The notes under the pieces are model-generated. The model did not search any database. It saw only the letters and a list, made by a program, of their open reading frames with translations, and had not been told where the DNA came from. Shown in pieces: positions 35,462-64,000 of a DNA stretch of 64,000 bases (position 1 is its first letter; the number at the start of each line of letters is the position of its first letter). The DNA lies in contig JAFSHF010000031.1 of the NCBI GenBank assembly GCA_017440465.1, forward strand, positions 6,064 through 70,063, given 5' to 3'. The position numbers were made by a program, and so were the translations under genes. Source of the stretch: Clostridia bacterium (GTDB lineage Bacteria; Bacillota; Clostridia; Oscillospirales; QAKW01).

Positions 35462-35604
35462 TGCGTGTTTTCTCCTTTTATAAAGTTGTTTTTTCTCCGT
35501 GATCGAAACACCTTTTTTTGCACACCCCACCGTTCGTTGCATCCTTCTGCCCGATGCACAAACGATGAAATGTGGCCATTCATCGTGACGAGCATATTGA
35601 TCTT

Positions 35605-35750
35605 CTGCGCGGAAAGTATTCCGGCTCGCAACTAAAACGCATCCGCTTCGCCTTCCCATTTTTTAAAAAACAGTGGCATAATGAAGCCTCGCTCGTTGCA
35701 CACGGCGGCGGGACCGCGGGGGCATCGCACCCCTCTTCCATCCCGCGCAG
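35605..35750 (-). promoter_or_regulatory. Cobalamin (B12) riboswitch aptamer
   Basis: Minus strand: P1 CTGCGCGG (35743-35750) pairs with CCGCGCAG (35605-12); GGAUGGAAGAGGGGUGCGAUGCCCCCGCGGUCCCGCCGCCGUGU core; B12 box GCCACUG (35671-77) followed by GGGAAGGC. Confidence 0.75.
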
Positions 35751-35769
35751 ATTGGAGATCTTGACTAAT

Positions 35770-56168: not shown

Positions 56169-56256
56169 TGGCGGAGGAGAAGGGATTCGAACCCTTGTGC
56201 CTTTTGGGCAAACGGTTTTCAAGACCGCCTCGTTATGACCACTTCGATACTCCTCC
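56169..56256 (-). tRNA. tRNA-Ser (anticodon UGA) with encoded CCA
   Basis: Hand-folded: acceptor GGAGGAG/CTCCTCC, anticodon stem GCGGT/ACCGT with loop CTTGAAA, long variable arm TGCC/GGCA, T-arm AAGGG-TTCGAAT-CCCTT, 3' GCCA. Confidence 0.9.
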
Positions 56257-57247: not shown

Positions 57248-57256
57248 TAGAGAACA

Positions 57257-57358
57257 TCAGAGTAGATCATTATGGGTTAAGTGCTTGAAGGACGGGGAGT
57301 TGCCTTCGGGACGAAGAAAGGCGGATGCCTTTTGCCGTATGGTGATCGCATCCCGCTG
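57257..57358 (+). promoter_or_regulatory. THF (tetrahydrofolate) riboswitch
   Basis: AGAGUAGAUCAUU..GGGUUAAGUG..GACGAAG..GGUGAUCGCAUCCCGCUG resembles the THF-I consensus as I recall it; followed by an SD-sequestering hairpin ACCTCCT/AGGAGGT plus T-run; upstream of folT. Confidence 0.7.
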
Positions 57359-57420
57359 CCGAAAAAGATAGGACGATACCTCCTGATTTTCGAAGTGGAA
57401 TGAAGGAGGTATTTTTTATT

Positions 57421-57957
57421 ATGAATAGCAAAAAACTCAGATTGTTGTGCCTTACCGCGGTGATGGCGGCGGTCTATGTGGGGCTGGATTTCCTTTCGGA
57501 AAGTGCCAGCGCGGTGTTCGGCGGGTCGATGAAAATTTCGCTGAGCGGCTTGCCGGTGGTCATCGTTGCCATCGTTGCAGGGCCCCTTTGGGGCGCGGTG
57601 ACGGGATTTATCGGCGAGCTTGTTGTCCAATTATGGATCTATGGGCTGATGCCGACCACCCTGCTTTGGGTATTGCCCGCGATGGCGCGGGGGCTTGTGA
57701 TGGGCTGGTTGTTCCGCGCTTTTAAAAAGAGCACCCATCCTGCCATCCTTGCGGTGGAAACGGTGCTTTCTTCGGTGGTGGTGACGCTGCTCAATACCGT
57801 CGGCATCCTGATCGACCAGACCATCTACGGCTATTCCACCTATATTGCCACTTTGGTCAAGATCCCCCTGCGGATCGCCACCGGCGCGGTCTCCGCCATC
57901 ATTTTTGCGTTGATCCTGCCGATCGTTCTGCGGTCGTTGAAAAAGTACATCAGATGA
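57421..57957 (+). CDS. folT: Folate-family ECF transporter S component
   Basis: About 6-TM, 178-aa protein behind the THF riboswitch; start at the ATG at 57421, inside track ORF 57400..57957. Confidence 0.8.
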   Translation: MNSKKLRLLCLTAVMAAVYVGLDFLSESASAVFGGSMKISLSGLPVVIVAIVAGPLWGAVTGFIGELVVQLWIYGLMPTTLLWVLPAMARGLVMGWLFRAFKKSTHPAILAVETVLSSVVVTLLNTVGILIDQTIYGYSTYIATLVKIPLRIATGAVSAIIFALILPIVLRSLKKYIR

Positions 57958-59963: not shown

Positions 59964-60659
59964 TTATACGCTCAACGATTTGATTTCAGGATGTTCATCC
60001 ATAAACTTCAGTACGTCACTAAAACGGATATTATTCTTCATCCGCACCTGCAGGACCATATTGAGGGTGTTATCGGCGCAGGTGGTGATGCGGGAGGAAA
60101 CGATGGTGATACCAAGTTCCTTTTGCTTTTCCTTTAAAATCTTGCGGATCTCGGGGGTATCCACTAAAGTGATGCGGATCTCGCCGTTGGAATAGGCGTC
60201 GTAGCCCACGTTGAAGTGGTGCATCAGCAACTGCACGCCGATGATCAGAACGGTCATAAAGAGGCAGACCCAATATAAACCGCTTCCGCACGCCATACCC
60301 ACAGCGGCGGTCGCCCAGATGCCTGCGGCGGTGGTCAGCCCCTTGACGGTGCTGCCGTTTTTATAGATAACACCGGCACCCAGGAAGGAGATACCGGTCA
60401 CCACCTGCGCAGCAATACGCGCGGGATCGGCGCCGCGGGAGCCTTCGATCATTGCCATATCGGCAAAGCCGTATTTGGAGATGATCATAAAGAGTGCCGC
60501 CGCGCCCGCAATGATGCAGTGGGTACGGATGCCCGCTTCCTTGGAACGCTTGGTACGCTCCAGACCGATGAAGGCACCGCAAAGGGTAGCCAGCAGCATA
60601 CGCAGCAGGTAGACAAAGATGGGATATGTATGGAAAAATTCTTTGATAGAGTCAAACAT
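59964..60659 (-). CDS. MgtC/SapB-family membrane protein
   Basis: GLERTKRSKEAGIRTH motif; ACT-like C-terminus. Confidence 0.85.
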   Translation of the reverse strand: MFDSIKEFFHTYPIFVYLLRMLLATLCGAFIGLERTKRSKEAGIRTHCIIAGAAALFMIISKYGFADMAMIEGSRGADPARIAAQVVTGISFLGAGVIYKNGSTVKGLTTAAGIWATAAVGMACGSGLYWVCLFMTVLIIGVQLLMHHFNVGYDAYSNGEIRITLVDTPEIRKILKEKQKELGITIVSSRITTCADNTLNMVLQVRMKNNIRFSDVLKFMDEHPEIKSLSV

Positions 60660-60674
60660 AATTAAAATCTCCTT

Positions 60675-61379
60675 TTAGATCGAAATATCTTTCACTTCCG
60701 GATGGGTATCCAGAAAACGGACGGTATCTTCAAATCGGATCGTTTTTTGGGAGCGGATCTGCATCTGCACCTGCACCGTTCCTTCCTCGTCCGAGCGGGA
60801 ATAGCGGGCAGAGATCAGCTGAACGCCGTAGTCTTTCTGCGCTTGCCTGAGCAGTTGCCGCACCTGCGCGTTGTTTGCCACAGTGATCTTTAGGGTACGC
60901 AGCGGCATGATCTGCACCCCGCGTAAGGAGAGGATCCAATGGTTGAGCAGCAAGAGCAGGGTACACAAAATGCCCAAAAGCTCCAGCCCGCAACCGCACG
61001 CCATACCGATGGCGGCGGTCGCCCAGATGTTGGCGGCGGAGGTCATTCCGGTGATAATGTCCCCCTCGGGTCTGCTGCAGATGATGCCTGCGCAGAGAAA
61101 GCCCGAACCGTCGATGATGAACCCTGCGACCAGCGTGGGATCAAAGCCCTGCGACCAGGCGGGCAGGCCCAGATCCAAAAAGCCGTATTTGGAGATGATC
61201 ATAAAGAGCGCCGCACTGCTTGCCAAGATCGCGTGGGTACGAATGCCGGCGTCCTTGGAACGAAAGGTTCGTTCGGCACCGAGAATTACCCCGCAAAGAA
61301 GCGCGATCAGCAACCGAAGGCAATAGATCCATTGCGGCGCAAGGTCGAGATATTCAGTTAAGCCAAGCAGATCCATCAC
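60675..61379 (-). CDS. MgtC/SapB-family membrane protein (tandem paralogue)
   Basis: GAERTFRSKDAGIRTH motif; same architecture as the neighbouring gene. Confidence 0.85.
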   Translation of the reverse strand: MMDLLGLTEYLDLAPQWIYCLRLLIALLCGVILGAERTFRSKDAGIRTHAILASSAALFMIISKYGFLDLGLPAWSQGFDPTLVAGFIIDGSGFLCAGIICSRPEGDIITGMTSAANIWATAAIGMACGCGLELLGILCTLLLLLNHWILSLRGVQIMPLRTLKITVANNAQVRQLLRQAQKDYGVQLISARYSRSDEEGTVQVQMQIRSQKTIRFEDTVRFLDTHPEVKDISI

Positions 61380-61487: not shown

Positions 61488-61516
61488 TTGAAATTTGCAA
61501 AAAAAGGGAGTATAAT
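61488..61516 (+). promoter_or_regulatory. Promoter TTGAAA-17-TATAAT
   Basis: Counted spacing; upstream of the signal-peptidase-like gene. Confidence 0.5.
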
Positions 61517-61570
61517 GTATGTCCTATTAATATATATTTTTTTATTTATTATTATTAAGGAGGCGCAGAG

Positions 61571-62098
61571 ATGAAAGCGGGAAGCAAACATTTGAAGAAA
61601 AATGCAAAGCTGCAGGCGCAATGGCTGCGCTCCACAGGGCTGATCATCGTGGTGGTCCTTTTGGCAACCTCGTTGCTTTTAAATCTATTCCAAATGGTAT
61701 TTCCGGTGGTGAAATATTATGGAACCGGAATGGAACCTTCCTTAAAGGACGGGCAGATCCTTATTGTAAACAAATTGGCAAAGATCAAAAAAGGAGATAT
61801 CGTTGCATTCTATTTCAATAATAAAGTGTTGGTCCGCCGAGTGATTGCGGCGGAAGGAGACGAAGTCTCCATCGATATGTTCGGGGCGGTTTCGGTCAAC
61901 GGCAAGGTGCTGGAAGAGCCCTACGCGTCCGAAAAGACCTTGGGTCAATGCAATTTGAAGTTTCCCTATACCGTTCCTGCCCACCATTATTTTGTTCTGG
62001 GGGATCAGCGGCAGGTGGCGATGGACAGCCGATTAAAAGAGATCGGCTCGGTGGATCGGGATCGAATGATCGGAAAGGTATTCTTCACATTAAACTGA
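61571..62098 (+). CDS. S26 signal peptidase I homologue lacking both catalytic residues (pseudo-peptidase)
   Basis: Box B reads GTGMEPSL (Gly where the Ser nucleophile is expected, codon 61727-29). Box D reads VRRVIA (Arg at the Lys/His position, codon 61835-37). Box E GDQRQVAMDSR is retained. Confidence 0.85.
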   Translation: MKAGSKHLKKNAKLQAQWLRSTGLIIVVVLLATSLLLNLFQMVFPVVKYYGTGMEPSLKDGQILIVNKLAKIKKGDIVAFYFNNKVLVRRVIAAEGDEVSIDMFGAVSVNGKVLEEPYASEKTLGQCNLKFPYTVPAHHYFVLGDQRQVAMDSRLKEIGSVDRDRMIGKVFFTLN

Positions 62099-62099
62099 C

Positions 62100-64000
62100 A
62101 TGAGCAAAGCGACCCAAATAAAACTGAATATCGGGCGCATTCTGCTTTGGTTTTGGGCAGGGCTGCTCTGCATCGGGCTGGGCATCGGCGTTTTTTACCG
62201 GGGGATGTTGCCTGCGGTGGCGCTGGAGCAGGAGCTGCGGTGCGGCATCGCGGAGCACGTACATACCGACGAATGTTATCAAGGCGATTTTCTGCAATGC
62301 GAAAAGACCGCCCATTCCCATAATGAGAACTGCTATATCGTTCTGCTGGAAGATAATAATATCGATGGCGTTTTCGGGATGATGGAAGAAGGGCAATCGC
62401 TGGAGGGTGTTATCGACAGCACCGTTTCCGGCGCATTGATCTTTAACGAAGATCTCAATGCTCCCACCGCCGAGGGCGGAATGGAGCAGCAAACGGTGGC
62501 GGCGCTCAATGCGACCATCGCCGAAGAAGAAACGCTGCCGGATATCGTTCTCAACGAAGAGTTGAACAATCTTTCCACAGTGCAACAAGAGCAGCCGCAG
62601 ACGGAAGGATTTATCGAGCTGGAGCAAAGCAATCCGCTTCTTAGCGGCAGCGCTTCTACCTATGCGGTGGGGAGCGAGCCGGATACCACCGCGAATAAAG
62701 CAAACATTTATGTTTATATCGACGGCTCCTGGCAATGCATCGGCACCCTGCCTTTTACAACGAGCAGCAGCTCCAGCGGAACCAATAATCGCTACGATGG
62801 ATATGTGCAGACAGCGGACCTATTGCAGATGGTCAATCAATCGTTGGGCACTTCGTATACCGCAGGTAACTTCGGCATTGTTTCCTCCACATCCCGAACC
62901 ACCGGCTATTCCGGATCATCGCTGAATATCGGAGCAACCACCGCCCGAATCTTCTATAACGCGCGCTCCAATGCGCGCACCAGCACCCGCTATGTCCGGC
63001 TGGTTCCCGCCGGCTATACCTCGTCCACAACGTCCTTTGGCTTTTATAGCGTAACGCTGGAATACCCCGAAGGATATGTCGATACCCATTATGTTCGGAC
63101 AAACAGCACCTTTACCTTCCCTGCGGAAAATTATGAATGGTCCAATGCCGCAGGCACCCAAACCTATCAGGCAGGGGAGAGCGTTACGGTCCGAAGCAAA
63201 TCCACCTACTACGGTACTAAGCTGGGTCCCATTACCGAGGTGACGGTGCACTACGATGTCAACTTCCCCACATTGAATTCTGCGACGGTTTCGACCAAGC
63301 CTACCTTGGCAGGAACAGCGGTTACCACCCTTTCTGATCTTTATAGTGAAGGCGCATCCGCAACGCTTCATAATATTTCGCAGCAAACGGTTGCGGGCCA
63401 GGTGAACAACAACAATACCGGCCTTTCCCGCGTGGCGCAGTTTAAGGGCTGGCGGATCGAAGGAACGGATATCATCCTTGCCGCCAATACCACGCTGGTC
63501 TGGGAAGAATTGTTGCAATATCAGACCAAAGGAACGATTTCGCTGGAAGGCGTTTGGGACCACGGCGAAAAGGTTACCGCCTCCTTCTTTGTTCGATTCG
63601 ATTCGGTGGCGGTGGATTCCGGCGGCAATGTTACCGGGCAGGATTCGAATAAATATACCAAAGAAATATTCGTTACCTATGTGGGCGGGATCGATACCAC
63701 CCAGAGCGTTTCCGCTCTGCATACGATGCATTATATCGACGGTGAATCGGCGGAGAACTCTTATGCTGTCGATAAAGAGATCCGCAACCTTTATGGCGGC
63801 GTTGGCAGAAACGGTGCCTGGCTGGCCGGCTTCCCCGGTGATGAATTTGTCTTTCAGGAATTGGTGCAATATGCCGAGACCGGCTATCTTTCGGTGGAAG
63901 GGGAGCCGGTGGCGGTGGAGCGGCTGAACGCGCAAAACTATGCGATCCGCTGGTATGTCTTCAAGGCGCAGGACGATGCCTGGCATATCGATGGCAGGCT
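62100..64000 (+). CDS. Large membrane-anchored surface protein, N-terminal 633 codons (3' end beyond the window); absent from the ORF track
   Basis: Hand translation finds no in-frame stop from the ATG at 62100 to the window end. N-terminal TM is ILLWFWAGLLCIGLGIGVF. The ATG lies 1 nt after the upstream stop. The long antisense ORFs 62085..62735 and 62916..63986 look like its shadows. Confidence 0.65.
   Translation, partial: MSKATQIKLNIGRILLWFWAGLLCIGLGIGVFYRGMLPAVALEQELRCGIAEHVHTDECYQGDFLQCEKTAHSHNENCYIVLLEDNNIDGVFGMMEEGQSLEGVIDSTVSGALIFNEDLNAPTAEGGMEQQTVAALNATIAEEETLPDIVLNEELNNLSTVQQEQPQTEGFIELEQSNPLLSGSASTYAVGSEPDTTANKANIYVYIDGSWQCIGTLPFTTSSSSSGTNNRYDGYVQTADLLQMVNQSLGTSYTAGNFGIVSSTSRTTGYSGSSLNIGATTARIFYNARSNARTSTRYVRLVPAGYTSSTTSFGFYSVTLEYPEGYVDTHYVRTNSTFTFPAENYEWSNAAGTQTYQAGESVTVRSKSTYYGTKLGPITEVTVHYDVNFPTLNSATVSTKPTLAGTAVTTLSDLYSEGASATLHNISQQTVAGQVNNNNTGLSRVAQFKGWRIEGTDIILAANTTLVWEELLQYQTKGTISLEGVWDHGEKVTASFFVRFDSVAVDSGGNVTGQDSNKYTKEIFVTYVGGIDTTQSVSALHTMHYIDGESAENSYAVDKEIRNLYGGVGRNGAWLAGFPGDEFVFQELVQYAETGYLSVEGEPVAVERLNAQNYAIRWYVFKAQDDAWHIDGR

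Follow-up and report, generated by a model that had tools for sequence, protein, structure and literature searches.

How a signal peptidase homologue that lacks its catalytic residues might serve a sortase-assembled pilus is the question raised by the locus described here, which lies near the end of a 64-kb stretch of DNA (64,000 nucleotides, hereafter the window) from an uncultured gut Clostridia bacterium. In Streptococcus pyogenes, the signal peptidase homologue SipA keeps the peptide-binding cleft without the Ser and Lys; it shows no peptidase activity, and pili do not polymerise without it (PMC4049620; PMC7900414). Direct in vitro evidence that SipA binds pilin signal peptides or sorting motifs was not obtained (PMC7900414), so that the way in which it is assumed to act is unproven in the model system itself. 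The initial annotation of the window proposed that a gene at 61571–62098 encodes a signal peptidase homologue with a similar non-proteolytic role. Here we ask what the protein is, which genes accompany it, how its relatives are built, and which function best fits.

Active-site columns of the S26 homologue

The gene encodes a 175-residue protein, hereafter the pseudo-peptidase, that is matched over residues 26–173 by the Pfam profile Peptidase_S26 (PF10502; E 8e-29) and scores 112 bits against a cut-off of 47 with the NCBIfam equivalog TIGR02227 (sigpep_I_bact). Boxes B, D, and E occur in order, as expected of an S26 homologue. Among PDB entries, the protein matches Staphylococcus aureus SpsB (E 7e-13; profile E 2e-15) and S. 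pyogenes SipA/LepA (E 9e-12). The Pfam, NCBIfam, and PDB alignments bear out the initial reading of an S26 homologue with both catalytic residues replaced. The features of the gene are as follows.

61488–61516, plus strand: promoter-like TTGAAA-17 nt-TATAAT (11 of 12 consensus positions; a consensus match only)
61558–61564, plus strand: Shine-Dalgarno sequence AAGGAGG, read directly, 6 nt 5′ of the pseudo-peptidase ATG
61571–62098, plus strand: pseudo-peptidase gene, a 175-aa S26 signal peptidase homologue with an ATG start, first gene of its operon
61631–61702, plus strand: N-terminal hydrophobic membrane anchor, residues 21–44, STGLIIVVVLLATSLLLNLFQMVF, from the sequence and from an AlphaFold helix at residues 7–43
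61727–61729, plus strand: Gly53, codon GGA (read directly), aligned to the nucleophile Ser column in box B GTGMEPSL
61835–61837, plus strand: Arg89, codon CGC (read directly), aligned to the general-base Lys column in box D VRRVIA
62000–62032, plus strand: box E GDQRQVAMDSR, by alignment, with Ala150 at 62018–62020
62096–62102, plus strand: stop/start junction TGAcATG, read directly, between the pseudo-peptidase and tip-protein genes

Single-sequence and profile alignments with SpsB place GESMDPTL on GTGMEPSL, with the nucleophile Ser on Gly53, and YVKRVIG on LVRRVIA, with the Lys on Arg89. Both codons, GGA at 61727–61729 and CGC at 61835–61837, are as originally assigned. Box E, which had been described as retained, is so only in part: the motif is recognisable, while the Lys-positioning Ser has given way to Ala150 (SpsB reads GDNREVSKDSR) and the Asn of GDN is Gln, with the Gly of GDN kept. 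The equivalent residue in E. coli, Ser278, hydrogen-bonds and positions the catalytic Lys (PMC4049620). The protein thus departs from an active S26 enzyme at three columns, the nucleophile Ser, the general base (Lys, or His in ER/SipW-type enzymes), and the box-E Ser, which here read Gly/Arg/Ala. The only conserved Ser or Lys near the site is Lys85, which aligns with Asp in SpsB. Neither a further S26 open reading frame nor an alternative Ser/Lys dyad was found within the 64-kb window, the profile alignments are unambiguous on this point, and the window holds no canonical lepB.

The N-terminal membrane anchor noted initially is present as a hydrophobic segment (residues 21–44) within a predicted helix (residues 7–43), with block-mean pLDDT values of 93 for residues 21–30 and 85 for residues 31–40, consistent with a transmembrane anchor and with a domain predicted to lie outside the membrane. 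The AlphaFold2 model as a whole, built from a 30-sequence alignment, reaches a pLDDT of 54, and a Foldseek search with it, topped by SpsB and SipA at a TM-score of about 0.2, carries no weight. Since the model is poor, the case for an intact substrate-binding groove is made by sequence conservation, on which the groove would be retained.

The pilus operon and its surroundings

The stop codon of the pseudo-peptidase gene (TGA, 62096–62098) lies one base from the ATG of the next gene at 62100, as first annotated. That gene runs off the end of the window and was completed, together with the genes behind it, from a near-identical contig that extends past the window end (locus L001; 1 mismatch in 12,430 shared bases). 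The order is pseudo-peptidase, tip protein, backbone pilin, class C sortase, basal pilin, small sortase, and terminator, and the six genes span L001 10001–18164.

62100–64000, plus strand: tip-protein gene, first 633 codons, cut by the window end (open reading frame, domains, and L001)
L001 10530–14042: tip-protein gene at full length in the L001 open reading frame, 1170 aa, with SpaA and Cna_B domains and LPESG
L001: backbone pilin, 582 aa, with a GramPos_pilinBB domain, E-box YTLKETKAPDGY, LPGTG, and a SpaH/EbpB match
L001: class C sortase, 260 bits with NF033745 (cut-off 160), TLVTC motif
L001: basal pilin, 284 aa, with Cna_B and LPQTG
L001 17616–18164: second, small sortase, 182 aa, TLFTC motif, conserved in 27 loci
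L001: terminator, a strong bidirectional hairpin with a 15-bp stem, directly 3′ of the small sortase

The giant surface protein to which the gene had been thought coupled is the 1170-aa LPESG tip protein, and the genes beyond position 64,000, where sortases and pilins had been suggested as worth seeking, include two sortases, an LPGTG backbone pilin, and an LPQTG basal pilin. After each of the LPESG, LPGTG, and LPQTG tails come a hydrophobic stretch and basic residues, and the backbone and basal pilins carry ordinary signal peptides. The pilin-motif region of the backbone reads TLKAYRP, without the canonical YPKN. The class C sortase segment TLVTCTPYGVNSHRLLVRG is conserved in 29 sequences, and the sortase carries the TLxTC signature. 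The small sortase, which reaches no NCBIfam class cut-off (best class C, 41 bits against 160), may be a dedicated anchoring sortase. Pilins, E-box, and class C sortase together mark a sortase-dependent LPXTG pilus operon. As L001 supplies the remaining genes and the MgtC genes upstream lie on the opposite strand, the pseudo-peptidase gene is, as read from the gene order, the first gene of a complete six-gene sortase-pilus operon. Its promoter-like site sits in the AT-rich intergenic region 5′ of the operon.

The neighbouring MgtC-family genes are a tandem pair (231 and 234 aa; 59964–61379, minus strand) divergent from the pilus operon. The intergenic region that holds the pilus promoter-like site also contains a minus-strand one (61441–61413) that fits the consensus perfectly. 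Farther upstream, the window carries a THF riboswitch (57256–57360, plus strand, 76 bits) directly 5′ of a gene for an ECF-transporter S-component (57400–57957; Pfam ECF-ribofla_trS), a tRNA gene (56172–56256, minus strand) between a FakA-like gene and a CBAH-family gene, and a cobalamin riboswitch (35594–35762, minus strand, 72 bits).

Streptococcal counterparts, Clostridia relatives, and the tip protein

The pseudo-peptidase resembles S. pyogenes SipA/LepA (FCT-2/3/4; PDB 4N31, 4K8W) in its S26 homology and N-terminal membrane anchor, in the replacement of both catalytic residues and of the Ser278 equivalent, in being encoded inside a sortase-pilus operon, and in its likely function as a non-proteolytic assembly factor. 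The two differ in other respects. At 32% identity to SipA, the query is no closer to it than to active SpsB. The three columns read Asp/Gly/Arg in SipA (PMC4049620) and Gly/Arg/Ala here, and the Gly of GDN that is kept here is Asn in SipA. SipA operons have a class B sortase and FctA-type pilins without YPKN (PMC4049620; PMC7900414 for the sortase class), whereas the present operon, in a gut Clostridia bacterium, is headed by the pseudo-peptidase gene and combines a class C sortase and a multi-domain backbone pilin like SpaH/EbpB. Pili built by class C sortases normally assemble without a SipA-like factor (PMC4049620). The protein is not an ortholog of streptococcal SipA, and because it is 45% identical to an intact pilus-linked peptidase of Clostridia against 32% to SipA, its inactivation is independent of the streptococcal one.

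Signal peptidase genes are found in other pilus loci as well. Lep of the Streptococcus agalactiae PI-2b islet likewise opens an operon with three pilin and two sortase genes (PMC5249243), as does the signal peptidase homologue of the Streptococcus suis srtF cluster. Both, which were compared by description only, differ from the pseudo-peptidase in that their dyad is reported to be intact (PMC4049620), and in this they resemble instead the Ser/Lys/Ser sister clade introduced below. The PI-2 SipA of Streptococcus pneumoniae and the mitis group is also a signal peptidase homologue encoded in a pilus islet and needed for pilus formation (PMC7900414), from another lineage and another operon. Among the canonical Gram-positive type I signal peptidases, which include SpsB (PDB 4WVG/4WVH) and the Bacillus subtilis SipS type, SpsB is the best overall match and shares boxes B, D, and E and the membrane anchor, but its Ser, Lys, and box-E Ser are all replaced in the pseudo-peptidase, whose gene stands in a pilus rather than a housekeeping context, one base 5′ of a tip gene. 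The Clostridium perfringens VR-10B locus (CnaA/FimA/FimB) is a Clostridia pilus operon with a signal peptidase gene, although its sortase is of class B and the locus is similar to those of streptococci (PMC8088525). A literature search found nothing specific on a pilus-linked dead signal peptidase of Clostridia.

Relatives of the pseudo-peptidase are numerous, with 753 protein clusters at E below 1e-5 and more than 576 loci among species-representative genomes, nearly all from uncultured Clostridia of the gut or rumen (Acutalibacteraceae, Oscillospiraceae, Lachnospiraceae, and Ruminococcus, including R. bicirculans). A Eubacteriales metagenome-assembled genome (MAG) encodes the closest, at 93% identity. 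Essentially every locus of sufficient length, across dozens of MAGs of Clostridia from gut and rumen, preserves the six-gene order. When 82 genomic copies were sorted by their three active-site residues, 35 had Ser/Arg/Ala, 21 had Ser/Lys/Ser, 12 had Gly/Arg/Ala, the class of the query, 7 had Ser/Arg/Ser, 5 had Gly/Arg/Ser, one had Ala/Arg/Ser, and one was an outlier. In a neighbour-joining tree, which is rough, the Arg-bearing sequences form one clade of 61 tips with a single Lys-to-Arg event. Arg occupies the Lys column in 61 of 61 clade loci and in all 120 of the closest protein clusters. Within this Arg clade the Ser column shows at least five changes among Ser, Gly, and Ala, of uncertain direction, against none in the 21 relatives that keep Lys. 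Flips of the Ser column that occur only after loss of the Lys are the pattern expected had loss of the base left the nucleophile without a function.

The Ser/Lys/Ser sister clade is also linked to pili. At least 13 of 20 loci place the gene directly 5′ of an LPXTG protein of 600–3200 aa, behind which genes for a backbone pilin and a class C sortase usually come. Intact Ser/Lys/Ser genes head sortase-pilus operons in many MAGs of Lachnospiraceae, Oscillospiraceae, and Ruminococcus (L063–L086), and for that reason a pilus-dedicated signal peptidase seems to be common in gut Clostridia. One Ruminococcus sp. MAG (L078, 6173–10426) has a cluster of three S26 paralogues, a homologue of class C sortases, and an LPESG protein of 2913 aa. 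Farther afield, the 150 nearest representatives of the whole protein universe, clustered at 50% identity, comprise 122 with Ser/Lys/Ser and 28 with assorted other replacements, on which basis loss of catalytic residues seems to be recurrent in this S26 branch. The 28 include Ser/Gly, Asn/Lys, Gly/Lys, Glu/Lys, Tyr/Lys, Thr/Arg, and Asn/Arg (among proteins P0135–P0284), and many are 300–730 aa long with the S26 domain C-terminal after a long N-terminal extension.

The gene downstream of the pseudo-peptidase gene begins with two conserved elements.

62136–62234, plus strand: tip signal/anchor segment (residues 13–33) and junction P-A-V-A/L-E-Q-E (residues 38–45; the slash marks the junction), from the sequence and homologues
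62241–62336, plus strand: Cys4His4 module C-x4-HxHxxxCY-x6-C-x4-HxHxxxCY, tip residues 48–79, from motif conservation

Of about 50 homologues, at least 80% keep the ALEQ of the junction. Tip proteins of the Arg clade start with a basic stretch, a hydrophobic segment of ~20–25 residues, and an AxA-like junction with the consensus [AST]-V-A-L-E-Q-E, and their module follows the consensus R-C-G-x2-E-H-x-H-x3-C-Y ... C-x4-H-x-H-x2-N-C-Y. Such a tip homologue with the junction follows all 56 Arg-clade genes that have a readable downstream open reading frame, and in each of the 56 the motif HxHxxxC[YFCW] occurs exactly twice. The same motif is present two to seven times in 6 of 19 downstream proteins of the sister clade, whose tips have a similar junction, P-A-I-[ST]-M-E. 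The six carriers, giant LPXTG proteins, are the downstream open reading frames of L071, L074, L076, L078, L082, and L086, with CGIEEHTHTDECY as an example. Among 2668 six-frame open reading frames of the loci, only three others contain the motif, such that 62 of 65 carriers directly follow S26 or S26-like genes. The module has no Pfam match even at permissive thresholds and may be a metal site. The model of the 633 N-terminal tip residues has a pLDDT of 50, with residues about 190–375 alone moderately confident, and its Foldseek matches, weak ones to tandem beta-grasp (ubiquitin-like) domains, are unreliable owing to the low confidence of the model. The moderately confident part corresponds to window positions 62670–63225, with pLDDT 70–89.

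A candidate pilus assembly factor and its alternatives

S26 homology, loss of three active-site residues, operon membership, selection, co-occurrence with the tip protein, and the SipA precedent lead us to regard the pseudo-peptidase as a probable non-proteolytic, SipA/LepA-like pilus assembly factor, with a probability of about 0.65. The analysis in this way supports the SipA-like role suggested at the outset. Given the lost residues and the surrounding operon, we infer that the protein would lack peptidase activity and would be needed for pilus assembly. In the mechanism that we propose, the pseudo-peptidase would be anchored at the outer face of the cell membrane, and its retained signal peptidase groove would bind a stretch of a pilus precursor in extended form. 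The likeliest such stretch would be the AVA/LEQE junction after the tip signal/anchor segment, whereby the tip precursor would be kept joinable to the backbone pilin by the class C sortase. The identity of the tip junction as the bound ligand is a tentative suggestion that may well prove wrong. Against an assembly factor stand the usual independence of class C sortase pili from such a factor and the fact that most members of the clade keep the Ser and all keep the Arg, which could reflect residual or altered chemistry instead of binding alone.

A more specific and speculative scheme, which we consider unlikely to hold in full, would make the Arg clade an independent and widespread set of pilus-dedicated pseudo-signal-peptidases that have co-evolved with one tip family. 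These would clamp the AVA/LEQE junction next to the membrane-proximal Cys4His4 metal-binding module and time the removal of the N-terminal anchor, so that assembly would start from a membrane-held tip. If so, the series Ser/Lys/Ser, Ser/Arg, and Gly/Arg would represent a stepwise conversion of a peptidase into a binding protein.

An improbable alternative to the assembly factor is an antagonist of the housekeeping signal peptidase. By occupying the tip junction or the class C sortase's signal-anchor, the pseudo-peptidase would block cleavage and keep the shielded protein tethered to the membrane until the sortase acts. The tip junction does have the look of a true AxA cleavage site and shows unusually strong conservation, the N terminus of the class C sortase is very conserved, and a dead enzyme with an intact groove would be a natural competitive binder. 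A protective role is also known from Actinomyces, where SafA is reported to shield the sortase from LepB2 (PMC9282373). SafA, however, is an unrelated small protein, and sister-clade loci of the same architecture and with similar junctions nevertheless encode an intact Ser/Lys/Ser enzyme, which an antagonist would leave unexplained.

A dedicated pilus-precursor peptidase with non-canonical residues, using Ser/Arg in the relatives and another nucleophile here, is far less credible. The strict conservation of the Arg, the Ser that is kept in about 70–90% of the clade (109 Ser and 11 Gly in the 120 closest clusters), the retained Gly of GDN next to the base column, and a sister clade that looks like active pilus-dedicated peptidases would all suit such an enzyme. 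In the query, however, the nucleophile column holds Gly, and no conserved Ser, Thr, or Cys adjoins it, the adjoining position varying among T, N, S, D, and E. In the clade at large, the Ser column has switched residue repeatedly, and Ala mostly replaces the Ser that positions the Lys. E. coli leader peptidase is inactivated by replacement of its Lys with Arg, which also counts against this possibility, and a search of the literature on LexA K156R for the competence of a Lys-to-Arg enzyme yielded nothing usable. Residual peptidase activity is accordingly unlikely in the pseudo-peptidase, which has no nucleophile, whereas the Ser/Arg relatives may retain some.

The loss of three catalytic residues is also what a pseudogene could show, but a decaying, functionless remnant or a set of assembly errors is negligibly probable given an intact reading frame with a Shine-Dalgarno sequence, the same protein on many contigs, a low dN/dS, and a position kept in dozens of species. 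The identical protein is encoded on 11 contigs, and four runs from as many independent studies, of gut, faecal, and goat-gut metagenomes, yield contigs that span it at a depth of about 8–10x with no variant at either key codon. A look for RNA runs that carry the gene found none. Relatives encode the same residues by different synonymous codons, with all six Arg codons used at the Arg column and all four Gly codons at the Gly column. Sequencing error, one of the refuting possibilities named with the initial annotation, is excluded by these contigs, the variant-free coverage, and the synonymous codons. Between the pseudo-peptidase and its closest relative (L007), dN/dS is 0.088 at a dS of 0.40. 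In addition, 58 columns are invariant across relatives that are 58–91% identical to the query, and variation is almost absent from the box B strand PVVKYYG.M, VRRV, and box E. The pseudo-peptidase is under strong purifying selection, and the intact frame, dN/dS, and conservation rule out a pseudogene.

With a non-proteolytic assembly factor as the preferred reading, the locus bears on how SipA-type dead peptidases aid Gram-positive pili, a question that more than fifteen years of work have left without an answer, since no binding partner of the streptococcal proteins emerged in vitro. The score of the pseudo-peptidase, far above the NCBIfam equivalog cut-off for signal peptidase I, leads pipelines to call it an active enzyme, as its source names show. 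SipA-type dead pilus peptidases are known as such; what is new is a class-C-sortase-linked, independently evolved, and widespread Clostridia counterpart. With the Arg clade, abundant Clostridia of gut and rumen would have arrived at this solution a second time and independently, alongside the commoner machinery of a class C sortase. The tip-protein junction supplies a candidate ligand that is very conserved, and the intermediates found in nature, from the intact dyad through Ser/Arg to Gly/Arg, could be exchanged for one another in experiments.
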